A stretch of DNA of 64,000 bases from a virus, in the IMG/VR virus record IMGVR_UViG_3300027797_000016, positions 32,001-96,000 of that record. One strand, given 5' to 3'. A program made the position numbers and the translations under genes. Each line of letters opens with the position of its first letter. Position 1 is the first letter of the stretch. The notes beneath the pieces were generated by a model. That model did not search any database, had not been told where the DNA came from, and saw only the letters and a list, made by a program, of their open reading frames with translations. Positions 1 through 55,418 of the stretch are shown here, piece by piece.

Positions 1-263
1 TCTCCTCCACCAGTTCTATTATGGAGAATACCAGTTCCTAAATCTTTTCTACCAAAGACAGCAATCATATAGATTTCGTGCTTGAATGCTTCTTCTTCAG
101 TAAGATTTTGTTTTAGGAATATGATACGATTTTTATCTTTAGGAACATATATTCCTTTTTGATGTTTTTCATATAATCTGTTTCCTCCACCTTTACCAAC
201 ATAATAAGGAGTTCTGTTCTCACGCAAATATGCATAAGTATAAAATCTTTTAGGATTTACCAT
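1..263 (-). CDS. GIY-YIG free-standing homing endonuclease, 5' part (runs off window)
   Basis: Manual translation MVNPKRFYTYAYLRENRTPYYVGKGGGNR...EEEAFKHEIYMIAVFGRKDLGTGILHNRT; closely similar to 13053-13724. Confidence 0.85.
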   Translation of the reverse strand, partial: MVNPKRFYTYAYLRENRTPYYVGKGGGNRLYEKHQKGIYVPKDKNRIIFLKQNLTEEEAFKHEIYMIAVFGRKDLGTGILHNRTGGG

Positions 264-365
264 TTCTACTCTTAAACTGACTGCATTATTATTTATATTA
301 AAAAGGAGTAGATTTCTCTACTCCCACCTTACAGATTGCAGTCAGTTAAGGCATCATTATTTAGT
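264..365 (-). promoter_or_regulatory. HEG leader cassette A: TAAATA, antisense segment, terminator, TATAAATA, leader
   Basis: Minus strand CTTAACTGACTGCA complementary to leader TGCAGTCAGTTTAAG; hairpin GGAGTAGA-GAAA-TCTACTCC-TTTTT. Confidence 0.75.
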
Positions 366-3474: not shown

Positions 3475-4254
3475 TTATGATATTCTAACTCTTTTGGAAG
3501 TATCTATTCCCCGTGCCCTTTGGTATTTTGCGAGATTACCAGCGTTTGTAATAAATCCAGTTTCTGTACACATCCATCTATGAGAATTTGCTTTTTTGCT
3601 ATTAATACTTCGTTCCTCAAAAGTAAGTGAATGAACTCCTATACCATCTTCATAACATTTTTTTCCTATTTCTCTTCTCTCTTCAATTGTTAAAGAATGT
3701 ATTCCTACACCATTTTCATAATTTTTTATTCCTATTTCTCTCAATTGTTCAGTAGTAAAGGAATGAACTCCTACACCATCTTCATAACATTTTTTTCCTA
3801 TTTCTCTTTTCTCTTCAATTGTTAAAGAATGTATTCCCTTCCCATCTTCATAACTTTTTTGTCCTATTTTTTTGCTTAATTCACTTCTTTCTTCTTGTGT
3901 TAAAGAAAAACAAGCATTTTTATTTTTATAAAGATTTTTTCCATTTTTTCTTCTTGTATCTAACGAAAAATTTCCACTACAACTTTCATTTAAGCACCAC
4001 TTATCAACATTATAAAATGGTTTTATTAATTGCCCCTCAATTTTTTGTGCGTGTTTCCAACCTTCATCAGTATAATCAAAAAGTTGTAATGTTTGTTTCT
4101 TTGGAGTATAAAGTTCCCAACACCACTTATGAGTTTTAGGAGAACCCACATAGTACTCACCAAACTTTTTCTCCTTATGAACTCCATAATAATAATACAA
4201 AACTTCCTCAAAGGTAATTTTATATGTGTATATTCTTGGACTTTGTGAAGTCAT
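3475..4254 (-). CDS. putative GIY-YIG-like free-standing endonuclease with 22-aa tandem repeats
   Basis: IYTYKIT...YYYGVH...YxGS N-terminus; SLTxEERREIGKKCYEDGxGxH repeats; HEG-type leader cassette. Confidence 0.7.
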   Translation of the reverse strand: MTSQSPRIYTYKITFEEVLYYYYGVHKEKKFGEYYVGSPKTHKWCWELYTPKKQTLQLFDYTDEGWKHAQKIEGQLIKPFYNVDKWCLNESCSGNFSLDTRRKNGKNLYKNKNACFSLTQEERSELSKKIGQKSYEDGKGIHSLTIEEKREIGKKCYEDGVGVHSFTTEQLREIGIKNYENGVGIHSLTIEERREIGKKCYEDGIGVHSLTFEERSINSKKANSHRWMCTETGFITNAGNLAKYQRARGIDTSKRVRIS

Positions 4255-4360
4255 AGTTCTGCTTTATGGTGTGTCGTATTACTATTTATACAAGAAAAGG
4301 TGCCCGAAAGCACCTAATCTCCGCTTCTGGTTACGACACACATAAGCATCTTTATTTATG
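4255..4360 (-). promoter_or_regulatory. HEG leader cassette B
   Basis: GCTTATGTGTGTCGTA vs leader TACGACACACCATAAAGC; AGGTGCT-TTCG-GGCACCT-TTT hairpin; TAAATA and TATAAATA. Confidence 0.75.
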
Positions 4361-4718
4361 AGTAATTGTAATGTAAATGTGTTTCCCAAGTAAAGAATGG
4401 TTGGTCACGACGAGCAATCATTTCTACAATATAATCCGGAACCAGTTTACCATACTTTTCCATAAATTCATCTTCTGTTGGTTGTTCCAATCCTTGCATA
4501 TAATAATCAGCACCTTCACCAACAAACTTCTCAAAATAACAAAGGTCGTGGTCTTTATCACCAATCGGTAGATAGTTACGGCAAATCTTCAACCAATAAA
4601 ACCTACCTTCCCCAGTCGCAACATAATCAATAGCAAAGAACCTGTAAAATGGTCTTTTATTTTCTGCTTCTCTTTCGGCAGCAATATCAAGCATTTCATC
4701 AAGTGTAAGGTCAGTCAT
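4356..4718 (-). CDS. hypothetical protein
   Basis: MTD start with GGAGG RBS, ATGA overlap. Confidence 0.7.
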   Translation of the reverse strand: MTDLTLDEMLDIAAEREAENKRPFYRFFAIDYVATGEGRFYWLKICRNYLPIGDKDHDLCYFEKFVGEGADYYMQGLEQPTEDEFMEKYGKLVPDYIVEMIARRDQPFFTWETHLHYNYS

Positions 4719-12593: not shown

Positions 12594-13056
12594 AAGGAAT
12601 CCATTCAGCAAAACTAAAGATATACGCAAGTCCCCATTCTAATGTATGAGGTGGTAGTTCGTCAATATGATTAAACGCAAGTCGTCTTGCTTCCAAGATG
12701 CGTTCTTTACCTACCGCAAGTAGATTTGCTTTAGAACCTTTGAGAAACTCATTATAATCTGCCTGATTATTCTGTTTCGCACCAGAGATATACAATCGTC
12801 TCATTTCAGTAAAAAGTTCTGCGGTTTCGGGGGCAAATGTAATCACTTCTTCCCCCAAAGGGATTTCCATAGTTTTCATCGCACTCATTGAAAATTTCAT
12901 CGCATCTCTGGTTTCTTCTACTGATAAGGCATCCTCATCCTCATCACGAAACTTATGTTGTATTATACCGTTACTGCACTCAACTAATCTTAAAAGAGCA
13001 ATCTTGTCCTTCTCAGAGTCAGGTAGTGCTTGAAATCTTGCGTCCCAGTCAATCAT
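12586..13056 (-). CDS. hypothetical protein
   Basis: 156-aa ORF, ATGA overlap with HEG stop. Confidence 0.7.
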   Translation of the reverse strand: MIDWDARFQALPDSEKDKIALLRLVECSNGIIQHKFRDEDEDALSVEETRDAMKFSMSAMKTMEIPLGEEVITFAPETAELFTEMRRLYISGAKQNNQADYNEFLKGSKANLLAVGKERILEARRLAFNHIDELPPHTLEWGLAYIFSFAEWIPYD

Positions 13057-13724
13057 TTTCTTCCAAGTCTCCAACCATCACCGGGACATTCTACCATCCT
13101 TTTACAATTTCCGCAACCATCATTCCACCACTTTTTACCTTTTCGTGTCTCACTCATTTTTCTTCTGGTTTCTTTGGAAAGGATTTTACCTTTTCGTGTC
13201 TCACTCATTTTTCTTCTGGTTTCTTCTGAAACAGGTCTGCCTTTAAGACCTTCAATTATTTTATCTATATGCTCTTTTGAGAGAGTTTTACCAATTTGTG
13301 ACTCACTCATTTTTCTTCTGGTTTCTTCCGAATGAATTTTACCATAGTTATGATTTTTTTCCCCTCTCCTTGCTTCACTCATTTTTTTTCTAGTTTCTTC
13401 TGAAGGGGTTCTTTCTCTCATTTTTTTTCTGGTTTCTTCACTAAAAACATAACCAGAAGCACCATCACCACCATCTGTAAGGTTGTGAAGAATACCAGTT
13501 CCCAAATCTTTCCTACCAAACACAGCAATCATATAGATTTCGTGTCTAAATGCTTCTTCTTCTGTTAAGTTTTGTTTGAGGAATATAATTCTTGATTTAT
13601 CTTTGGGTGGGTTATTTCGTCTGTTTGTAGAATAAATCCTATCTCCAGTACCTTTACCAATATAATAAGGTGTCTTATCTTCACGCAAATATGCGTAAGT
13701 GTAAAACCTATTAGGATTTACCAT
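13053..13724 (-). CDS. GIY-YIG homing endonuclease with NUMOD3-type repeats
   Basis: FYTYAY...YYIGKG...R...E...N motifs; repeated SEETRRKMSE. Confidence 0.9.
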   Translation of the reverse strand: MVNPNRFYTYAYLREDKTPYYIGKGTGDRIYSTNRRNNPPKDKSRIIFLKQNLTEEEAFRHEIYMIAVFGRKDLGTGILHNLTDGGDGASGYVFSEETRKKMRERTPSEETRKKMSEARRGEKNHNYGKIHSEETRRKMSESQIGKTLSKEHIDKIIEGLKGRPVSEETRRKMSETRKGKILSKETRRKMSETRKGKKWWNDGCGNCKRMVECPGDGWRLGRK

Positions 13725-13833
13725 AGTTCTGCTTCTAAATTGTGTTCGCAATACTATTTATACAAGAAAAGGTGCCCGAAGACACCCTTCCCACTCTTAT
13801 GGATGCGAACACATTAGAGCACCAGTATTTATC
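13725..13833 (-). promoter_or_regulatory. HEG leader cassette C
   Basis: GCTCTAATGTGTTCGCA vs leader TGCGAACACAATTTAGAAGC; GGTGTC-TTCG-GGCACC-TTTT; TAAATA and TATAAATA. Confidence 0.75.
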
Positions 13834-17945: not shown

Positions 17946-18023
17946 CAGGTTTCTGTGTATGAGAGTATTATAAGGCATCTGGTGCCCCTGTGGAGGGCTC
18001 TTGTGACGGTTCTTCAAGTGTCC
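17946..18023 (-). promoter_or_regulatory. repeated early promoter element
   Basis: core CTCCACAGGGGCACCAGATGCCTTATAAT identical to the 11753-11835 copy. Confidence 0.8.
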
Positions 18024-45947: not shown

Positions 45948-48900
45948 TTAGTTTAGAAAGTTTTGTCCTACAACAACACCATACCAACTAGAACCACCAT
46001 CAAAGGTCTTATAGGAATAGATATCACTTCTACCTGCAGTTGGTGTTACAATTGGAATAACTCCACCACCAGGCCAATTAACAGTAATTGGTGGTCCATC
46101 ACCAGTTGTAAAGGTATTAATACCAACTCCAAATGCAGCAGTTTGTGTAATTTTAATTGTAAAGGAACTTACTTCACCTGGAGGATTTGTGATTGTAAAG
46201 GAGTTTACCTTATCAGTTGCAGATAATAAGAAGTTCTGTGCTCTTGAGAGATCAACAGTAACAACATTTGATGCAATAGAAAGTGTTTTTACTGCTTCTC
46301 TTGAAGTCTTAATTCTTAAAGTACCCTCAACATCAAGTTTTGTTCTTGGTACTGTGGTTCCAATACCAACATTAGGACCAACAGTTGTGATTGCAGTTCC
46401 ACCACTACCAACTACAAGTGTTGCAGTGGTAACGATACCAAGATTAATCGTACCAGTTCCACCAGAGAAGTTAAAGGAACTTGCAGTAATAATACCAGTG
46501 ATGATTACATTATTTGCACTTAAGGTATTATTAAATCTTGCAGTATTATTGACCCAAAGTGAAGTTCCACCAGCGCCAACTGCACCAACCTCAAGTTTAA
46601 ATCGTGGAACAGAAGTACCAATACCAACATTATTAAGTGCAGTATTATAAATGCCTCCAGATATTTGAGTCCATCCTGCTGCTGGGACAGTTACTCCAAA
46701 TAGTCTGGATCCATCACCAACAAAATATGTTGCTGTTAATGTACCAACAATATTTGTACCTCCAATAACGTGAAGTTTATATTGATTTGCAGTGGTTCCA
46801 ATACCAACTCCACCATTTCCATCTATAGAAACTTGAGTTGTTCCAGAACCAACCAGAAGTTTTGATGTTCCTGGATTATTAGTTGCAATACCAATAGCAT
46901 CAAAGATGCCAATATTAGCAGTTTTAGAAATACTTACATTACCAAAACGATACCATTCATTATCTAAAGTATAAATCCAACCAACATAACCACCCTTCTC
47001 TGGGTTGTTAAGGTATACAATGTCTCCTGGGTTTCCTGAAAGTGTTGGTTCAGTGATTCCTACAGTATACTTTCTTGAGACTATTTCATCACCCTGTAAA
47101 AAGAGTGAGTTTGCCTCAAGACCATCAGTAGAAGTTGAGGTTACTTTACCTCTTAAAACTACAGGTCCATTAAACTCTGAGATTGCCTTACTATCAGGAC
47201 CACCCTCTACACGAATTGAGCGACTAAAGTTACCCTCAACTGGACTAATCACATTCAGTCCAGGAAGACCTCCAATGTCTTCACCAGTCACTGTTTGTAT
47301 AGGGGTATCAAAGATGTCTTCTTGACCGGTAATAGAACTTAATCTTTTATTACCAGAGTATGAAATACCCTTATCATTCATACCAGTGTAGAAGTTAACA
47401 CCACCATCTTTTTTAGTTGATTGTGCTAATAGTTCTTCTTGTAATGAGATTTGACGGTCTTGTTTGTCTGGGAATGCAGTTGAGTAGTTACCTGGACCAT
47501 AACCAACATACTCAAAGGTATGTCCCGACGCTCTCATAATAGAGTGTCTTCTTAATTCAATTGGCTCAACACGGATTCTTCTTACAACACTACCAATCGC
47601 GTGATTGACTGCACGAGTTCCTAATACACCACGGAACACCTTGATTGGGTTTGTAGGAGTACTTGGAACATTAGACTTGACTCTTACAATCTCATCATCA
47701 ATCACCAGATAATCACCAATATTGATATCAAGATTTGATACATTAAGAAGATTAACTTCATCAATTAGTGCATCAGGTATCAGTGCAGAAAGTGTAGTAG
47801 TAATACCAGCATAAGTTGGAACCATTCTACCATTCAGGTTCTCATTCTCTCTTGTAATCACACCTTCATTTGAGGTAAAACCTTCACGATATGCAAGAAG
47901 AGTTCCTGTTGCTGCTGGAGCACTTGTAGAAACGCCAATATTCACAATAAAGGAGTTAAGACTTAAGTTCTCAGTAACAACAAACTGACCAGTATAAAGT
48001 GCTTCATTTGCACCAGTAATGCTAATCTTATTATCTACTTTCAGTCCGTGAGCATTGATTGTGGTAATCGTTGCAATACCAATTACATTATTATAAGTAA
48101 GTGAACTAATACGAATTGCTTCACCAGTTAGATATGTGATTGCATTAGAAGTAAATACTGGACCAACTGTAGTGGAAATACCCGATACTGCAGAGGCAGA
48201 TACTGCAGTAAAACTTGTTGCAGAACCTACATTCGTAATACGGTAAAGGTTGTTATAATCCTGATAAGAAGTAGAAGTTACGCCAGAAATACTAACAACA
48301 TCACCAACATTATTATAAATTTGAGTGACTGTAAGAACTGCACCACTAAATCCACCATAAGAACCAATACCAGTTACAGTCAGTGTATTACCGATTCCAT
48401 ATGCACTACCACCATCCATAATCTTCACATTAGTGATGCTTCCTGAACCATCAACAGTGACTTTTGCAGTTGCTTGTTGACCTACAGTAGAAGTTCCAAT
48501 ACCTACAAGACTTGCATTATAATAGTCACCAGGAGTACCAGAACCATAACCTGTACCAGCATTTGAAATAGAAACTCTTGTAATACGATTGAGTCCGTGA
48601 TCTAATGAAGTAAAGACATTATGTGAAGTGGATGATACTGAACGAATATCAGTCAGTCCAATACCAATATCACTATCATTAAATACCTTATTGATAGTTT
48701 CTTTTGTTAAACTATTACGAACATCATTCACTACAACTTCACCAATCAGTGAAGAAGATGCAAAACACTTGGTTTCTTCAGGGTCTGCTTCTGGATTATC
48801 ACGATTGATTTGTGGAAAAAGTTCTTTAACTGGTTGTGAGAACTTTTCATTAGTAAATGGAGCAACACTTGGAGCATTTGATGCATTAACAAGAGTTAAG

Positions 48901-51740
48901 TAATAAACACCATCTTGTTCTCCTGCAATATATTTCTGTGCTTCTTCACTTCTGTAGATGAAATAAGTATTATTAAATTTCTTTCTTCTAAAATGTGGTA
49001 GTGATGTAGATCTATTTGTTGTATCACTTGTAAATGTGCCTGGATTTGTGGTTAATGAGAAACTAAATTGCTTAGTATTAGCAACTGCAGTCACAGTAAA
49101 GGTTCCATTAAATCCAAGATTTGCAGTACCTAAAGTATTATTAGTACTTATAATATTCAGTATCTCAACTTGAGAACCAATTGTAAGATTATGTGATAGT
49201 TCAGTTGTAATAGTTGCTGTGTTAGAACTCCAGATAGCATTTGCAATGAACTTAAAGTTTCTCTGCTCATTCACATTAGTAATAGATCCAGAACCAAAGT
49301 AAGTTTGGATTTCACTATTTGTTGCACCAATTGTTGTGTTACTTTCCTGAATAATAAATCCATCACTTGGCGGTCTTGCGGTTGCACCAGAGTCTGATGG
49401 GAGAACATAACGAACACGATAGATTGTATCTACTGCATTACGATCATCAGTGAGACGATTAAAGAATGTTCTTGGAGTTGCATCACCAAGAACAGAAGAT
49501 CCAAGACTTACAATCGTTGAGTAAATGGTGTTATTAGATGTTGCAACTTTAATGTACCATTGACCTTGAGTATCATCAAACTGAATTGGATGTCCAATGT
49601 CTCCAGGATTCTTATCACTAACACGACTTGCAACAGTTAGAGTTCCACCCTTTGCATTAATAATGAGTGGTGTTGCACCGATTGCATCATTCTGGGTTTT
49701 GGCAATCTTGATTTGATTTGTTCCAATTCCTGACGTAATCGCATAATAAACTGTATTAGGAGTCATTCCATCAGGAAGTTGACCTGTATCACCAATCACA
49801 CGAATACTTTCACCATTTGCAAAAGTATGTGCAGTTGTAAGAGTGAGTGTATTGCTTGTAATGCTATTGACTCCTACACTTCTTCCTACAAAAAACTCTT
49901 TCTCACTAGAAGTTTGAGAATCAGGCATTACGATTCTTGCACTATATTCAACGGGAGTTCCTCCAGATGAAATAAGTACTTTGAGAGTATCATTTTCTCT
50001 TGCACCAATACGATATCCTTCGAAAACATTTTCTGGTGGAACATCTGGATTAGTTTGTGCATAAAGATATAGATGTCCTGTGGATGCAACACCAACAGTT
50101 GCATTTACATCAATCGCATTAAACTCAATAGAGGTTTCGGTTTTTGAGAATTCTTTTGGTGGAATGATGTGTGTAATATATCCTTGGTCATCTTGTGGAA
50201 ATGCAGTTCTTCTAAATCCCGATGCAACTAGTGCCTTTGCACCAAAGTTTGAGTTGGAGTTGGTGATAGACATATCTCCACCACTCTCAACCACAAAATG
50301 CTCTGCATAACCAATCGCAAATACTGATACGTTTTGAATGAATGCATCATTAGTTGCTTTAATATGGAAGTTACGATATTCTGGTTTAAAGATTGACCTG
50401 GAGTTTGTACTGATAGTCTCATTTCCAGAAACAGTGCTATCTTGATAAACACCAGAATCATTATCATAAAGTACAAAAGCATTATCATCTTTTTGCAGTC
50501 CAATACCAGTGAATTGAGCAACCACCATCGATTTAAATCCAGTTGCTTTATTACCATCCGCGAGCAATCCACACATACCAAAGACAGAACGCAGAGTTAT
50601 GTTAAAGATATATGGTGATGCAGAAGTTACAGTATCTGACTGAAGTGTTAAAGAAGATCCAGTAACTGAAGGAAGAGCAAGTGATGGTGCATTTTGTACT
50701 TGATAGGTAAGTTCTGTATCACTCAACTTTTCAGCAACAACAAATTGTCCATTATATCCAGGTGCAGTAATTCCTCCGATTCTAAATGGAGTATCAACAT
50801 CTAAACCAGGAACTGCAGTGGTCGTTGTAACTGTGATGATTTTAGAAGGTACTACACCATTTCCAGCACGAATACTTGAGATTCCTGCAGATTCTCCTAT
50901 GGATCCTACAATACGGAACTCATCAATCTTTGGTTGAATATCAATACCAGAACTTGGATAATCAGGTGAAATTTCACGACCTGATGATTGTCCATATGCA
51001 AGTCCAACTTTCTCATAATACATCTCAAGATCTGTGCGATCTGTGGAGTATGTTTGGAAAGGATCAGAAATATTTACATCGTTTACACCATCAGCATACT
51101 CAAAACACGCTAACTTATGATGTGAGAAGTTAGGAACAAATGTGTTGCTAGTGTAATCAATATAACAGGTTCCATTAGGATCTGCATCAAACATTGAGAA
51201 CTGCCAGAGATAGCAAGCACCAGTGACCCGGAATATTGCAGAACGTTCAATATTGTTATTGGTTGGGTTTGGAACATACAGAGGTCTTATTTTCGTCTTT
51301 CTTAAATCAAGACCAACAATAGAAGTTCCTCTTGGAATAATGACCCCACCATTAATACTATTCAGTTTGTAAAGTTGATTATTTGGGTCTACTAAATTAA
51401 AACTAGTGGTGAGGTCAAATGGTGGAAAGTCATTACTTGTAGATCCATTACGAAGTCTATAGTTATTAGAACCATCAGGAATCCATCCTGGACGATTATC
51501 TACGATATGATCGCCAGGATATAGAAGAATTGTCGTTTTTGCGAATCTATCGTTATTCAGTCCTTGCTGATACGAAAATCTCGCAGATTCTATCAAAGAA
51601 CGTTGAATAGTTTTAAATGGACGAGTTAATGAACTCCCTTGATTTTCAATAGAGTCAGTTGCATCAAGACTATTGGGATCTACATATATGATATTTCCAC
51701 GAACAGATTTCAAAAAATTATTTAATCTTGAAAGACCCAT
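45948..51740 (-). CDS. giant virion structural protein (1930 aa)
   Basis: MGLSRLNNFLK...PFKTIQR start typical of cyanomyophage structural proteins; fibre-like C-terminus. Confidence 0.8.
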   Translation of the reverse strand: MGLSRLNNFLKSVRGNIIYVDPNSLDATDSIENQGSSLTRPFKTIQRSLIESARFSYQQGLNNDRFAKTTILLYPGDHIVDNRPGWIPDGSNNYRLRNGSTSNDFPPFDLTTSFNLVDPNNQLYKLNSINGGVIIPRGTSIVGLDLRKTKIRPLYVPNPTNNNIERSAIFRVTGACYLWQFSMFDADPNGTCYIDYTSNTFVPNFSHHKLACFEYADGVNDVNISDPFQTYSTDRTDLEMYYEKVGLAYGQSSGREISPDYPSSGIDIQPKIDEFRIVGSIGESAGISSIRAGNGVVPSKIITVTTTTAVPGLDVDTPFRIGGITAPGYNGQFVVAEKLSDTELTYQVQNAPSLALPSVTGSSLTLQSDTVTSASPYIFNITLRSVFGMCGLLADGNKATGFKSMVVAQFTGIGLQKDDNAFVLYDNDSGVYQDSTVSGNETISTNSRSIFKPEYRNFHIKATNDAFIQNVSVFAIGYAEHFVVESGGDMSITNSNSNFGAKALVASGFRRTAFPQDDQGYITHIIPPKEFSKTETSIEFNAIDVNATVGVASTGHLYLYAQTNPDVPPENVFEGYRIGARENDTLKVLISSGGTPVEYSARIVMPDSQTSSEKEFFVGRSVGVNSITSNTLTLTTAHTFANGESIRVIGDTGQLPDGMTPNTVYYAITSGIGTNQIKIAKTQNDAIGATPLIINAKGGTLTVASRVSDKNPGDIGHPIQFDDTQGQWYIKVATSNNTIYSTIVSLGSSVLGDATPRTFFNRLTDDRNAVDTIYRVRYVLPSDSGATARPPSDGFIIQESNTTIGATNSEIQTYFGSGSITNVNEQRNFKFIANAIWSSNTATITTELSHNLTIGSQVEILNIISTNNTLGTANLGFNGTFTVTAVANTKQFSFSLTTNPGTFTSDTTNRSTSLPHFRRKKFNNTYFIYRSEEAQKYIAGEQDGVYYLTLVNASNAPSVAPFTNEKFSQPVKELFPQINRDNPEADPEETKCFASSSLIGEVVVNDVRNSLTKETINKVFNDSDIGIGLTDIRSVSSTSHNVFTSLDHGLNRITRVSISNAGTGYGSGTPGDYYNASLVGIGTSTVGQQATAKVTVDGSGSITNVKIMDGGSAYGIGNTLTVTGIGSYGGFSGAVLTVTQIYNNVGDVVSISGVTSTSYQDYNNLYRITNVGSATSFTAVSASAVSGISTTVGPVFTSNAITYLTGEAIRISSLTYNNVIGIATITTINAHGLKVDNKISITGANEALYTGQFVVTENLSLNSFIVNIGVSTSAPAATGTLLAYREGFTSNEGVITRENENLNGRMVPTYAGITTTLSALIPDALIDEVNLLNVSNLDINIGDYLVIDDEIVRVKSNVPSTPTNPIKVFRGVLGTRAVNHAIGSVVRRIRVEPIELRRHSIMRASGHTFEYVGYGPGNYSTAFPDKQDRQISLQEELLAQSTKKDGGVNFYTGMNDKGISYSGNKRLSSITGQEDIFDTPIQTVTGEDIGGLPGLNVISPVEGNFSRSIRVEGGPDSKAISEFNGPVVLRGKVTSTSTDGLEANSLFLQGDEIVSRKYTVGITEPTLSGNPGDIVYLNNPEKGGYVGWIYTLDNEWYRFGNVSISKTANIGIFDAIGIATNNPGTSKLLVGSGTTQVSIDGNGGVGIGTTANQYKLHVIGGTNIVGTLTATYFVGDGSRLFGVTVPAAGWTQISGGIYNTALNNVGIGTSVPRFKLEVGAVGAGGTSLWVNNTARFNNTLSANNVIITGIITASSFNFSGGTGTINLGIVTTATLVVGSGGTAITTVGPNVGIGTTVPRTKLDVEGTLRIKTSREAVKTLSIASNVVTVDLSRAQNFLLSATDKVNSFTITNPPGEVSSFTIKITQTAAFGVGINTFTTGDGPPITVNWPGGGVIPIVTPTAGRSDIYSYKTFDGGSSWYGVVVGQNFLN

Positions 51741-51769: not shown

Positions 51770-52561
51770 TTATTTATCGTCCTTATTTCTTGGTCTTCTT
51801 GTTGCTTTCCATCCTTTATAATTATCTTGCTTTCCATTTACGACTTCATATACAAACTTAGAAAATAAATTATTTTCTTTGCAAAATTTTAAAGCATTAA
51901 TAGTTTTAAATATTTCACCATCAGGAGAAATAAAAGTATAAACATACTTACATTTTGAATCACTTAACTTTTCTTTAGTTTCAATAGTGTGATTTTTATT
52001 ATAAAAAGGATTTTTTTCTCCCGTTATATCTCTTCCACCATTTTCCCAAAATTTTTTATGCGACACACTTATTTTATTTTTATGCTCCTCTTCTTTTTTA
52101 ATTCCTTTCATTTTTTTGGAAAATTTTTCAATATGTTCTTTTGATTTTGGTGGTTTTGATTTACCCTTTAAAGATTTTGATATATTTTCTCTTCTTTCTA
52201 TACTAAATTTAATTCCTGTTTTTAATTCACTCATTCTTTTTTTACAATTTTCATATAAAACTGAGGTATATCTTACTTGAGTTTTATTTTTTGCACTCAT
52301 ACTACAGAATGCCTGATTCATTTTAATAGTTTTATAATGCTTTAATCCATACCTTTTGATACAAATCTTTTCCAATAATGCGTGAGCAATATAATGTTCT
52401 CTTGCGGCCAAATAGACAATTCTTTTATTATTTCCATATATGCTTTTAGGAAATGTATGATGTCCCTCAACATACACTCCTTTCTCCTTTGCTTTCTTTT
52501 TAGTGTAATTTCTTTGTTCTGCTTTTCTTATGAGGTTACAATAAACCTTTAGATAATTCAT
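51770..52561 (-). CDS. HNH-like homing endonuclease with NUMOD-type C-terminus
   Basis: EGHHxxP...VYLxxREHYIAHxLL; SKEHIEK, HTIETKEKLS. Confidence 0.8.
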   Translation of the reverse strand: MNYLKVYCNLIRKAEQRNYTKKKAKEKGVYVEGHHTFPKSIYGNNKRIVYLAAREHYIAHALLEKICIKRYGLKHYKTIKMNQAFCSMSAKNKTQVRYTSVLYENCKKRMSELKTGIKFSIERRENISKSLKGKSKPPKSKEHIEKFSKKMKGIKKEEEHKNKISVSHKKFWENGGRDITGEKNPFYNKNHTIETKEKLSDSKCKYVYTFISPDGEIFKTINALKFCKENNLFSKFVYEVVNGKQDNYKGWKATRRPRNKDDK

Positions 52562-52666
52562 ACTGCTCTTAAAACTGACTAGCAATATTATTTATACTAA
52601 AAAGGAGGAGATTTTAGTCTCCTCCAACCTCAAAGATGCTAGTCAGTTAAGGCATTTTTATTTATT
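52562..52666 (-). promoter_or_regulatory. HEG leader cassette D
   Basis: CTTAACTGACTAGCA vs leader TGCTAGTCAGTTTTAAG; GGAGGAGA...TCTCCTCC-TTTTT; TAAATA and TATAAATA. Confidence 0.75.
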
Positions 52667-53290
52667 ACTCTTCCACTTATGATCTTTCCATTTTAGTCTT
52701 TTTTCTAATTCTTTATCAAAGATTAGCATATATCTATGTTTCCTGGTTCTCTCTCTCCACTCGCCTTTAAGACTCCTTGTAGGACCTCTTGAGTGCTTTA
52801 TATAGGATCCATCAGGTTGTTCAATCCAGAAGTCACTCTTAGGATCGGTCGTCCCAAAATACCGGAAATTAGTTGCACGATAAATGACTCCTGTATGGTG
52901 ATTAGCATCAGCATAGCTAAGAATACAACGAACATTTGCATCTTTACGAAACCTCTTGATACAACGACTTACGAACCAGGATGTGATATTATATTCTTCT
53001 TTTTGGACATCTGGATGAACACAAAGTCTTGAGAGTTCATAGAGACCTTCCTGTTCATTTCTTTGTAGTCCAAATGCACCTACGGCAAGCTCTGGAACTG
53101 GGAAAGAAGTAAAAACGCAAGCAGCAATAGGGCTGCCAATTCTAAGGACATCTGTGAAAGATTTTCTATAGAGTGCATAGTTATAGTGACTTTTAAAAGT
53201 TTTACTCTCATCCTTAAGATAATGATATGTTAAAAGGAGTGGTTCAAGTTCTTTTTTTGTCACTCTTTCTATATAGAAGTCACTTTTCAT
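52658..53290 (-). CDS. Mom-family (GNAT-fold) DNA adenine modification protein
   Basis: HYL...ELSRL...SWFVSR...LSYAD...HxGxIYxATNF. Confidence 0.75.
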   Translation of the reverse strand: MKSDFYIERVTKKELEPLLLTYHYLKDESKTFKSHYNYALYRKSFTDVLRIGSPIAACVFTSFPVPELAVGAFGLQRNEQEGLYELSRLCVHPDVQKEEYNITSWFVSRCIKRFRKDANVRCILSYADANHHTGVIYRATNFRYFGTTDPKSDFWIEQPDGSYIKHSRGPTRSLKGEWRERTRKHRYMLIFDKELEKRLKWKDHKWKSNK

Positions 53291-53308
53291 AATAATAAGT
53301 ATTTGTAA

Positions 53309-53842
53309 TTATTTACTAACACGATTATATGATTTTCCATAAAATGGATTATTTTCTCCAGTAATATCTCTTCCACAATCTTTCCAATATTTTTTGGCAG
53401 CTTTTCTCATTTTATTTTTAGTTTCCTCACTATGCGGTTTTCTTTTTCTATTCTTAGAAGAAAGTTTCATTTTTTCTATTGTTTCTGGTGAATGTTTTTT
53501 ACCATAAAATGGATTTTTACTGCCAGGTTTTGAAATTTTTTTCTTAGTATCTTCATTATGCGAATATCCAGATATTCCATCACCACCGTTAGTCATATTA
53601 CGAAGAATACCAGTTCTCAAATCTTTTCTACCAAAAATAGAAATCATATAAACTTCGTGTTTATTTGCCTCTTCTTCTGTAATATTTTTCTTTAAGAAGA
53701 TAATTTTATTATTGTCTTTTGGTTTTAAGTTTGTTTTATTTTGTCTAATATGACTTTTATAAACTCTCCTTCCTCTACCTTTACCAATATAATAGGGAGT
53801 TCCGTCTTTACGCAAATATGCGTAAGTGTAATATTCGTTCAT
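53309..53842 (-). CDS. GIY-YIG homing endonuclease with NUMOD3-type repeats
   Basis: YYTYAYLR...YYIGKG...NMTNGGDG; HSEETKNKM. Confidence 0.88.
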   Translation of the reverse strand: MNEYYTYAYLRKDGTPYYIGKGRGRRVYKSHIRQNKTNLKPKDNNKIIFLKKNITEEEANKHEVYMISIFGRKDLRTGILRNMTNGGDGISGYSHNEDTKKKISKPGSKNPFYGKKHSPETIEKMKLSSKNRKRKPHSEETKNKMRKAAKKYWKDCGRDITGENNPFYGKSYNRVSK

Positions 53843-53940
53843 TGTGTCTTGGTGTTGACTATTAATATTTATAACATAAAAGTGGGACTTATACAACTAT
53901 ATCCACCAAGACACAAGTTGCTGCCCATTTTACTTAATTA
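53843..53940 (-). promoter_or_regulatory. HEG leader cassette E (variant)
   Basis: TTGTGTCTTGGTG perfectly complementary to CACCAAGACACAA ending at the A of the ATG; TATAAATA at 53866-53873. Confidence 0.65.
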
Positions 53941-53942
53941 TG

Positions 53943-54101
53943 TTATGATTTGCTGATAAGGTACTCAACAGTATTTGCTACATCATTCATAGCATCACGA
54001 AGATTTTCTCTTTGACCTGATTCCATATCAAAAGTAACGGGATCTGTAAGAGTCCATCTCCACTGATTCATATCTTTATTGAACCATAGGTTAATTATCA
54101 T
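53943..54101 (-). CDS. small hypothetical protein (52 aa)
   Basis: INLWFNKDMNQWRWTL...AMNDVANTVEY. Confidence 0.6.
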   Translation of the reverse strand: MIINLWFNKDMNQWRWTLTDPVTFDMESGQRENLRDAMNDVANTVEYLISKS

Positions 54102-54253
54102 TATGATTTTTTATATTTTTCTAATTTGATCCAATTTAGGAGTGCATTTAGTTCTCCTCGTTTTGATTCAGTCATATCTTGACCTTTACTGAAGAGATAG
54201 AAATCAATTGCTTCAATAGTGAGATTACGATCTTTTTGTGAAATTAGAGACAT
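54101..54253 (-). CDS. small hypothetical protein (50 aa)
   Basis: MSLISQKDR...LLNWIKLE. Confidence 0.6.
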   Translation of the reverse strand: MSLISQKDRNLTIEAIDFYLFSKGQDMTESKRGELNALLNWIKLEKYKKS

Positions 54254-54275
54254 ATTAAAGTTTTTAAGAAACTTA

Positions 54276-54347
54276 AGCCCCCGATCTGATTTGAACAGAC
54301 GGCCGACGGTTTACAAAACCGTTGCTCTACCACTGAGCTACAAGGGC
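54276..54347 (-). tRNA. trnT: tRNA-Thr(UGU)
   Basis: GCCCTTGTAGCTCAGTGGTAGAGCAACGGTTTTGTAAACCGT...GTTCAAATC...GGGGCT cloverleaf. Confidence 0.95.
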
Positions 54348-54356
54348 AACAAAAGA

Positions 54357-54385
54357 ATTATAGATTATTTAGAGCATTTTGTCAA
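54357..54385 (-). promoter_or_regulatory. consensus sigma70 promoter TTGACA-N17-TATAAT for tRNA-Thr, with TAAATA in the spacer
   Basis: read directly. Confidence 0.85.
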
Positions 54386-54647
54386 GGACTTCAGGATTCT
54401 CAAGATCCATTTCGAATAAACAAGGATGTGCCTCCTCATCAATTAAGTAGAATGATTTTTGATAGAAAAATTCTGGATCATATGTTAGATGCTCATTTGC
54501 TTTTTGGATGATCTCTGGATCATCTTGCATAATAATTGGTATTTCATCAAAAGTAAATGCAATACCATTAATATAATAAGTTAGAATAATAAACTTATCG
54601 TCTTCTGTCTCATACCAATTATAAGAAGTTGTGATCTTATATTTCAT
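54369..54647 (-). CDS. hypothetical protein
   Basis: YYINGIAFTFDE...YLIDEEAHP. Confidence 0.7.
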   Translation of the reverse strand: MKYKITTSYNWYETEDDKFIILTYYINGIAFTFDEIPIIMQDDPEIIQKANEHLTYDPEFFYQKSFYLIDEEAHPCLFEMDLENPEVLDKML

Positions 54648-54658
54648 TGGTTTTTTTA

Positions 54659-55387
54659 TTATTTATTGATCCATTTGCGAATAGAATTATCACTAACACC
54701 ATATTTTTTACCTACAGCAAGATAAGAACTTTCTTTTACTTCTTGTAATAATTGTTCTTTAGAAGGTCTTTCAACTTTTCTTTGAGATTTTGAATAACAA
54801 CTATTACAAAGACCCGTTTTGCAGTTTGTTTTTAATTCAACCTCACACGAAGAACATTTATGAATTTTTTTGGTTCGTATTATTTGAATTTTATTTTTTA
54901 TTGTTTGTGAGTTTTTATTTTTCTTATTTTTACCACGATATGTTGGTGTTTTAGCGTGGCAGTTGGGACATAATATTTTTAGATTTTCTAACATATTGTT
55001 ATAATGGTCTCCATCAATATGATCTAATTCTAAAGGTATTGGTTCTCCTAACCATTCACTCAACTCACAACATTCGCATCTATGATTCTTTAATCCCTCT
55101 ATAATTAATCTTTTTCGCAATTTGTTAGAATTGTACTCATAATTCTTAACAAGTATTTCGCTTAATGGAGTTGTATTAAACTTGTGAGTTTTCCCCTTTA
55201 GATGTCCTTGACCTGTAAAATGTGAAGTGTCTATTCCATAAAGTTTTTCAAATTTTTTAAATACTCTATAGTTTCCACCTCTTGGAGATAATCCAAGTTT
55301 TGTAAGTGCTTGTGCTATAGAAAAACTTTCTTCTACTGCTTTTTTAAAGTCTTCTATAGAATATGAATGTTTCATACTGATAAACAT
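54659..55387 (-). CDS. free-standing HNH endonuclease with C-terminal HTH (alternative start 55375)
   Basis: CECC...LELDHIDGDHYNNxLENLxILCPNCH; AVGKKYGVSDNSIRKW. Confidence 0.9.
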   Translation of the reverse strand: MFISMKHSYSIEDFKKAVEESFSIAQALTKLGLSPRGGNYRVFKKFEKLYGIDTSHFTGQGHLKGKTHKFNTTPLSEILVKNYEYNSNKLRKRLIIEGLKNHRCECCELSEWLGEPIPLELDHIDGDHYNNMLENLKILCPNCHAKTPTYRGKNKKNKNSQTIKNKIQIIRTKKIHKCSSCEVELKTNCKTGLCNSCYSKSQRKVERPSKEQLLQEVKESSYLAVGKKYGVSDNSIRKWINK

Positions 55388-55418
55388 ATTGTATAGTTAT
55401 TTATATAAGTTTATCAGT
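55376..55418 (-). promoter_or_regulatory. start-sequestering hairpin with late promoter TATAAATA in its loop
   Basis: ACTGATAAAC...GTTTATCAGT-ATG, 10-bp inverted repeat. Confidence 0.7.

Follow-up and report, generated by a model that had tools for sequence, protein, structure and literature searches.

A portable 5′ control cassette of homing endonuclease genes in T4-like cyanophages, with a ribosome-site mask and a predicted small-RNA unit

Introduction

Homing endonucleases are among the commonest selfish genes of large phages, and to our knowledge detailed accounts of how the harm done to the carrier is restrained exist for a few T-even examples only. In the 64-kb stretch of viral DNA analysed here in full (hereafter the window), four nuclease genes are each preceded by a segment complementary to their own leader, and this arm is accompanied by a promoter-like motif and a terminator-like hairpin. 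The question raised by these loci is whether the arm only masks the ribosome-binding site (RBS) in transcripts that read through from upstream genes, or whether it is also released as a discrete RNA. Hairpins that sequester the RBS and contain a nested late promoter are described, in the accessible text of PMC2988022, for T4 I-TevI, I-TevII, I-TevIII and segB, as well as for mobE of the Aeromonas phage Aeh1. Similarly, the accessible portion of PMC2677866 presents environmental "fractured gene" endonucleases with upstream hairpins that include TATAAATA and two complementary motifs.

The source phage and its nuclease genes

The window is part of a 105-kb viral contig with a G+C content of 36% and an estimated completeness of ca. 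42% (CheckV), and all the genes examined lie on the minus strand. The source is a T4-like cyanophage of freshwater type, whose closest named relative is the freshwater Synechococcus myovirus S-SRM01 (identity ca. 82%, over short pieces). Four public RNA runs, all consisting of assembled contigs, contained this phage: one freshwater metatranscriptome with 93% of the sampled words and three others with small shares.

Database searches with Pfam and PHROGs revealed NUMOD3, GIY-YIG and HNH matches for genes located behind the cassettes. Gene C combines a GIY-YIG-like N-terminus with three NUMOD3 stretches. The N-terminus of gene A is the same as that of gene C and matches NUMOD3 and homing-endonuclease relatives; the 87-aa fragment available in the window had no Pfam match. 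The protein encoded by gene B had neither a Pfam nor a PHROG match, and its MTSQSPRIYTYKITFEEV.YYYYG... motif is probably GIY-YIG-like. Proteins related to gene B (MTSQSPRIY.YKITFEEVPYYYYG...) recur behind cassettes in many contigs and in S-SRM01 (e.g., L106:10707-11483 and L199:1892-2665), and may represent a GIY-YIG-like homing-endonuclease family that has not been described so far.

Several features were observed around these genes. The region 51770-55405 of the minus strand comprises three nuclease genes (D, E and an HNH ORF) amid a 210-aa ORF of no assigned function, small ORFs and a tRNA-Thr gene (54276-54347), which has a CTAAATA motif upstream, at ca. 54372. The HNH-type ORF (242 aa; 54659-55387, minus strand) lies behind a bare TATAAATA (55398-55405) with no arm and no terminator, and just before this motif is a sequence resembling the 3′ half of a tRNA (GGTTCAAGTCCCC...), in which neither ARAGORN nor Rfam called a tRNA. 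At the other end of the region, GATAAATA overlaps the stop codon of nuclease gene D and is located upstream of a 1930-aa ORF (45948-51740).

The freshwater metatranscriptome contigs join or diverge exactly at 3475, the end of nuclease gene B, and at 4713-4715, where the 120-aa ORF that precedes cassette B begins. These breakpoints suggest, from contigs only and at 90% likeness, that the block composed of the 120-aa ORF, the cassette and nuclease gene B is replaced or absent in variants of the population. Other contig ends, at 301 and 13846, and a joint linking 13703 to 4251 were set aside as assembly effects, as they fall on the terminator-promoter block, and contigs break at the cassettes because this block is repeated.

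Organization of the cassettes

The four sites display the same succession of elements: a TAAATA motif (P1) and, 4-5 bases further on, a 5′ arm; a hairpin rich in G+C with a T-run behind it; the TATAAATA motif (P2); and a leader that complements the arm and precedes the ATG of the nuclease gene (Table 1). The whole cassettes A-D gave RNA folds between -32 and -38 kcal/mol; relative to dinucleotide shuffles, their z-scores lay between -4.7 and -5.7, and none of 200 shuffles folded as well.

An architecture of ca. 100-110 bp common to four nuclease genes had been claimed by the initial annotation, and it was recovered on the minus strand at every one of these sites. It is not a product of chance, given the strand bias of TATAAATA, a covariance model with exactly four matches in the contig, and the more than 170 copies found elsewhere. 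The same annotation had called for a covariance model of the regions preceding cyanophage homing endonuclease genes (HEGs). Such a model, constructed from 150 distinct cassette copies, identified cassettes A-D as its only matches in the 105-kb contig and six cassettes in the complete genome of S-SRM01 (record positions 17953, 48433, 51247, 55959, 62406 and 192421), each with a nuclease-like ORF behind it. S-SRM01 is a cultured phage whose latent period lasts 6-8 h (PMC8557907).

Table 1. Elements of the five nuclease cassettes of the window and the genes that they precede
Feature	Position	Strand	Remarks
Cassette A, P1	358-363	-	TAAATA in CTAAATA context; sequence
Cassette A, predicted P1 transcript, 53 nt	300-352	-	Two-hairpin fold, -18.9 kcal/mol; start placed at 6th nt after P1
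Cassette A, SL1 (5′ arm + leader mimic)	326-352	-	Fold
Cassette A, terminator hairpin, then T-run	304-325	-	Fold
Cassette A, P2 late promoter TATAAATA (predicted)	290-297	-	Sequence
Cassette A, leader of P2 mRNA	264-284	-	Complements 5′ arm; cognate duplex -19.8 kcal/mol
Nuclease gene A, ATG 261-263	3-263	-	N-terminal 87 aa only in window; MVNPKRFYTYAYLRE..., GIY-YIG-like
Cassette B, P1 (CATAAATA)	4353-4358	-	First TAA is stop codon of upstream ORF 4356-4718
Cassette B, predicted P1 transcript, 55 nt	4293-4347	-	SL1 + UUCG-loop terminator; -19.5 kcal/mol
Cassette B, P2 TATAAATA	4283-4290	-	Sequence
Cassette B, leader of P2 mRNA	4255-4277	-	Complements arm; -18.9 kcal/mol
Nuclease-like gene B, 259 aa, ATG 4252-4254	3475-4254	-	MTSQSPRIYTYKITFEEV.YYYYG... 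motif
Cassette C, P1 (GATAAATA)	13826-13831	-	20 nt past stop of upstream ORF
Cassette C, predicted P1 transcript, 56 nt, terminator within	13765-13820	-	Fold, -20.9 kcal/mol
Cassette C, P2 TATAAATA	13755-13762	-	Sequence
Cassette C, leader	13725-13749	-	Complements arm; -21.6 kcal/mol
Homing endonuclease gene C, 223 aa, ATG 13722-13724	13053-13724	-	NUMOD3, E = 9e-28
Cassette D, P1 (AATAAATA)	52659-52664	-	Upstream ORF 52658-53290 ends inside P1
Cassette D, predicted P1 transcript, 55 nt, terminator within	52599-52653	-	Fold, -19.5 kcal/mol
Cassette D, P2 TATAAATA	52589-52596	-	Sequence
Cassette D, leader	52562-52583	-	Complements arm; -22.6 kcal/mol
HNH homing endonuclease gene D, 263 aa, ATG 52559-52561	51770-52561	-	One NUMOD3 stretch; HNH
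Cassette E, plain T4 type, fifth nuclease cassette	53840-53916	-	13-nt arm 53904-53916; TATAAATA 53866-53873; leader paired up to ATG 53840-53842
GIY-YIG-like gene behind cassette E	53309-53842	-	Without P1 and without terminator upstream

Distribution of the cassette

Named phages searched by BLAST contained no match to the A/D-type cassette, and S-SRM01 was the only one to match the B/C type. Two exact-pattern scans of IMG/VR, using the terminator-P2 junction only as a query, returned 113 and 92 stretches, and more than 170 distinct copies of the architecture were found in the sampled contigs. A set of 150 distinct cassettes from IMG/VR contigs and S-SRM01 was aligned. At the gathering score, the tRNA-Thr was the only Rfam match in the whole window, and the cassette fits no family. 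The fetched loci contained 341 distinct TATAAATA sites, 188 of which have a leader-complementary arm. The claim that the antisense arm has a promoter-like site and a terminator of its own is borne out by this collection: P1 is invariant in 150/150 aligned copies, and P1 occurs together with the hairpin and T-run at 173 of the 188 arm-bearing sites. At four more, P1 and the hairpin are present but the T-run is decayed; the few others are explained by missed detection, by spurious arms in coding regions and, in one case, by a degenerate P1. A block of 22 nt, composed of the 3′ half of the terminator, the T-run and P2, is identical in 113 contigs that differ in their arms.

Nearly all the 155 complete downstream ORFs encode GIY-YIG, HNH or NUMOD3 proteins. 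The proposal that the cassette travels with free-standing endonucleases thus agrees with comparative evidence, as several nuclease families were found behind it. Since one and the same leader class can stand before ORFs of the GIY-YIG, HNH and other types, the module extends as far as the start codon and no further. Some cassettes precede ORFs of 108-203 aa without a match to nuclease families (L185:7642-7965, L056:6983-7390, L144:392-1000 and L065:9752-10234, with N-termini MEEFLEGLKTFDAG..., MEDLFASLKDVV..., MPNWSEEGF... and MKLNVKALNECLG...), which may be further selfish genes or cargo placed under the same control module. At four loci of other phage contigs (L104:~7430, L189:~3478, L007:~2437 and L151:~6210), P1 lies directly against a tRNA gene at its 3′ end, and the sequence just upstream of P1 resembles a T-arm, an arrangement reminiscent of T4 segB in its tRNA cluster.

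Cassette E, which was not among the four cassettes initially listed, has homologues in L009 (+2085) and L110 (-9731). Such plain T4-type cassettes (E in the window, and the L009, L110 and L029-type families elsewhere) lack both P1 and the terminator. Across the sequences compared, these two elements are present or absent together, a co-occurrence that rests on few independent lineages because the cassette copies are homologous.

Complementarity between arm and leader

In the alignment of 150 sequences, 88% of the cells assigned to the arm:leader helix and the terminator were paired. Double-sided changes numbered 646 versus 182 ± 18 in shuffles (n = 150), and the covariation score reached 0.44 versus 0.22 after shuffling and at most 0.125 with slid partners. 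Alignment-free duplexes had a median of -23.3 kcal/mol for cognate arm:leader pairs versus -10.4 kcal/mol for non-cognate ones. Over 126 copies, the helix had a median length of 17 bp and a median energy of -23.7 kcal/mol, and the arm matched the leader in 125 of them. The sole mismatch, L103:~385 (plus strand), is a chimera that carries an L007-type arm and an L084-type leader joined at the conserved terminator-P2 block; a search of the rest of the L103 locus yielded no cognate arm for this cassette. Given the strength of the cognate duplexes and the 125 matched copies, the long-range pairing of arm and leader is therefore under selection.

A complement to the leader in front of the ATG had been noted from the start, and its presence stands. 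The length of 14-18 nt then assigned to it was too short: the complementarity extends over ca. 17-20 bp and reaches to 2-4 nt before the ATG. In all copies, the P2 motif lies 3-5 nt ahead of the 3′ arm. The best complement of each arm was always its own leader. Cross-pairing between A and D reached -16 to -17.5 kcal/mol, as compared with -20 to -23 kcal/mol with their own leaders, so that these two cassettes could cross-react within the window; the arms of B and C were largely orthogonal.

P1 as a late-promoter-like element

The only invariant columns of the alignment (n = 150) are the TAAATA of P1 and the TATAAATA of P2, while arms, loops and spacers vary freely. TAAATA was found at the P1 position in 177 of the 188 arm-bearing sites, versus 4/188 in a control window located 28 nt further upstream. 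P1 and P2 are followed by the same context, N-T-A-W-T-R-C, in which the sixth base after the motif is a purine at 99% of P1 sites and a G at 94% of P2 sites, and the seventh is a C at 99% and 96%, respectively. At ordinary TATAAATA sites preceding start codons (n = 86), the sixth base is a purine in 81%. T4 late promoters initiate six bases downstream, and the purine shared at the sixth base fits initiation six bases past the motif.

Immediately before P1 stands an A (68%) or a C (32%); G and T do not occur there. This preference matches the motifs that are purged from the antisense strand of the contig: counts on the coding and antisense strands were 27:2 for ATAAATA and 10:1 for CTAAATA, whereas GTAAATA (19:9) and TTAAATA (14:13) were not purged. 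In a separate count, TATAAATA had 11 occurrences on the coding strand and none on the other, and ATAAATA 21 versus 1, with ca. 13.5 expected per strand; such a bias shows clearly that the motif has a function in this phage. Several CTAAATA sites are located just 5′ of genes or of the tRNA. The established late-promoter motif of cyanomyoviruses, all of which possess g55, g33 and g45, is NATAAATA (PMC2984593). CTAAATA, the form present at 32% of the P1 sites, including cassette A, differs from it, and the strand counts suggest that the late-promoter core of this phage is A/C-TAAATA, which is broader than the published motif.

The stop codon of the upstream ORF falls inside P1 at 56% of 161 loci, the other ca. 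44% having their stop outside P1 or no such ORF. A role of P1 as a mere stop codon of the upstream gene was rejected as insufficient, since the hexamer is equally invariant where no stop falls within it. Altogether, P1 is conserved and promoter-like, and its spacing and putative initiation context are those of the P2 late promoter.

The predicted P1 RNA

The first nucleotide of a P1 transcript was placed on the basis of what is known of T4 and of the nucleotide preferences described above. A transcript running from the sixth base past P1 up to the T-run would measure 46-57 nt (53, 55, 56 and 55 nt in A-D). In all 150 copies, the predicted transcript folds into a stem-loop flush with its 5′ end (SL1), with the terminator hairpin directly behind. 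The first base of SL1 is the predicted +1 in 116 copies and +2 in 34. In SL1, the 5′ portion of the arm pairs with the leader-like segment that follows; the loop, of 6-7 nt, complements the bases with which the predicted P2 mRNA starts. Median values for SL1 were 8 bp, -6.2 kcal/mol and a z-score of -1.9, with 73% of the cells paired in a MAFFT alignment. SL1 and the terminator together had 230 double-sided changes versus 106 in shuffles, and the SL1 stem was stronger with cognate (-6.6 kcal/mol) than with non-cognate (-3.6 kcal/mol) strands. Support for SL1, covariation included, is thus moderate. A leader mimic that competes with the leader would be superfluous for a mask acting in cis only, and is what would be expected of a stable free antisense RNA.

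A search based on structure only (P1, two hairpins and a T-run) retrieved 158 units composed of P1, SL1 and terminator, and P2 came next in 154. The other four are L143, where P2 is displaced by 14 nt, L186, a detection artefact, L087, an unrelated hairpin, and L153:5677 (plus strand), a decayed unit in which P1, a perfect hairpin and the terminator precede a non-complementary leader and a non-nuclease gene. No stand-alone unit that would act in trans on a distant target was identified among the 158 matches.

Proposed mechanism and alternative explanations

The core of the cassette is the known T4-type RBS mask with a nested late promoter, and the T4 mechanism, a cis mask on read-through RNA, is certainly encoded as well. 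A small RNA antisense to the leader of the late mRNA is the most likely product of the additional promoter and terminator, and we consider it on balance probable that the cassette makes such a discrete RNA besides the mask. Taken whole, the explanation that we somewhat favour is a portable 5′ control cassette of free-standing HEGs in S-SRM01-like T4-type cyanophages, in which the mask and the putative P1 RNA are combined. A more tentative part, which we regard as possible but short of probable, is that this sense-strand inverted-repeat RNA of ca. 50 nt is made late, seeds through its loop on the 5′ end of the late nuclease mRNA, and represses it in trans with a specificity set by the locus-specific arms.

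According to this model, transcripts arriving from upstream would mostly end at the terminator. In those that read through, the arm would pair with the leader over 17-20 bp and bury the ribosome site, as in the T4-type mask. Late in infection, the P2 mRNA would be open for translation because its start lies inside the 3′ arm. Simultaneously, P1 would give rise to an RNA of 46-57 nt, starting six nucleotides downstream at the conserved purine-C, ending at the terminator, and adopting the form of a 5′-flush SL1 followed by the terminator hairpin. This RNA could nucleate on the 5′ end of the P2 mRNA because the SL1 loop complements its first nucleotides; it would then zip over the whole leader and throttle nuclease synthesis in trans, so that the nuclease would bring its own governor wherever it moves. 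The antisense RNA would be specified by an inverted repeat in the sense strand because the phage avoids late promoters on the antisense strand.

The chief alternative, which we find doubtful, is a T4-type mask that acts in cis only. The arm would then work solely in read-through RNA, the terminator would insulate the nuclease gene, and P1 would be kept as a weak promoter with silent read-through products, as a supply of stop codons for the upstream gene, or as an A/U-rich processing site. An arm, a nested late promoter and a masked RBS form the proven design of I-TevI, segB and Aeh1 mobE in the accessible text of PMC2988022, and the same design was proposed for environmental nuclease genes in that of PMC2677866. 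A mask alone would likewise maintain the arm:leader complementarity, the upstream ORF does stop within P1 at more than half of the loci, and trans-only units were absent from the structure search. However, a cis-only mask leaves unexplained the invariance of TAAATA at loci where it is not a stop codon, the initiation context common to P1 and P2, the A/C preference that matches the strand-purged motifs, the leader-mimicking SL1 at the predicted +1 or +2 in all copies, and the joint presence or absence of P1 and terminator. Moreover, an efficient terminator in the loop would leave few read-through RNAs to mask.

Another explanation, which we hold to be improbable, is a recombination module comparable to PeSLs (promoter-early stem-loops), in which the conserved block and the promoter motifs at the edges mainly provide short homologies for shuffling nuclease ORFs and their flanks, the P1 RNA being a by-product. 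Terminator-promoter motifs of the PeSL type are documented shufflers in T4-like phages (PMC2839356, PMC4122927). Consistent with shuffling, the 22-nt block is the same in contigs with unlike arms, one leader class precedes different kinds of ORFs, the L103 chimera is joined at this very block, and metatranscriptome contigs link cassettes B and C across it. Yet exchange at a central block would part arms from leaders, and all but one of the 126 cassettes are matched. A unit made of cassette and nuclease gene bounded by promoter repeats at both ends was also rejected, since A/C-TAAATA lies near only 28 of 152 nuclease 3′ ends. In any case, recombination could go together with either RNA mechanism and does not compete with them. 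Finally, a P1 RNA directed mainly at another target (the related nuclease mRNA of a co-infecting phage, another cassette of the genome, or a host transcript) would fit the nearly equal cross-pairing of A and D, but is very improbable given that every arm has its best complement in its own leader and that B and C are largely orthogonal.

The favoured explanation, a mask combined with a P1 RNA, concerns an abundant element, which has more than 170 distinct copies in the sampled contigs and six in the cultured S-SRM01, precedes nucleases of at least three families, and in which a second, putative late promoter and an internal terminator have turned a cis mask into an apparent small-RNA gene. If the RNA is real and acts in trans, the cassette would provide a regulator that moves with its nuclease and a natural set of orthogonal antisense/leader pairs, and would explain how antisense control can operate in a genome that avoids antisense-strand late promoters. 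It would then represent both a new class of device by which selfish nucleases limit themselves and a new kind of small-RNA gene in phages. If no RNA is made, the invariant P1 still calls for an explanation.

Comparison with known systems

As in the T4-type mask, the cassette has an upstream arm that pairs with the leader and ribosome site of an HEG, and a TATAAATA late promoter, predicted here, between the two arms, so that late transcripts would be free of the mask. Cassette E is exactly of this type. In contrast, cassettes A-D have a strong predicted intrinsic terminator in the loop; their arm follows an invariant late-promoter-like motif of its own, which shares the start-site context of P2, and is pre-folded in a stem-loop that mimics the leader. 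An arm supplied by read-through only, with neither promoter nor terminator of its own, was found in E and two other families, and not in the A-D type. A second promoter or an internal terminator is mentioned neither in the S-SRM01 genome paper (PMC8557907) and a 2025 review of phage small RNAs (PMC12197685) nor in PMC2988022 and PMC2677866, as far as the accessible text of these sources extends. The version of the T4-type mask with terminator and P1 is thus new relative to the literature searched.

Like PeSLs, the cassette is a conserved composite of terminator and promoter motifs repeated between genes (four times in the contig and six in S-SRM01), and PeSLs are tied to the modular shuffling of accessory genes (PMC2839356, PMC4122927). 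As regards shuffling at the motif, the observations here are the single chimeric cassette and the occurrence of the same leader before different nuclease families. Unlike the cassette, with its late-type TAAATA and TATAAATA motifs, PeSLs have early (sigma-70) promoters, lack an arm complementary to a leader, and have no particular link with nuclease genes. CfrI of S-PM2 is also a cyanophage non-coding RNA linked to an HEG, but it is ca. 225 nt long, is transcribed from the opposite strand so that it spans both the nuclease gene and psbA, and is unrelated in sequence and design (PMC2984593, PMC12197685).

The cassette had been likened at the outset to a type I antitoxin. In type I systems, the toxin is a small, usually membrane-active peptide, and the antitoxin gene is overlapping or divergent on the opposite strand (e.g., hok/sok). 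The resemblance lies in a predicted small RNA, with its own promoter and terminator, that complements the translation-initiation region of an adjacent harmful gene. The defining features are nonetheless missing, and the comparison was abandoned: the "toxin" is a DNA endonuclease of 200-260 aa (223-263 aa for B, C and D) rather than a small membrane toxin, the RNA would be encoded upstream on the same strand, and nothing in the cassette supports a logic of differential stability or post-segregational killing.

Functionally, the nearest analogue appears to be RNA-OUT/RNA-IN of IS10, in which RNA-OUT, transcribed from the strand opposite to RNA-IN and overlapping it, exerts antisense control over the transposase. 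The predicted antisense segment of the cassette differs in being a same-strand inverted repeat upstream of the gene. In both cases, a mobile element would encode a stem-loop RNA whose loop pairs with the 5′ end of its own mRNA, forming a duplex that covers the ribosome site and limits the expression of a potentially harmful mobility enzyme.
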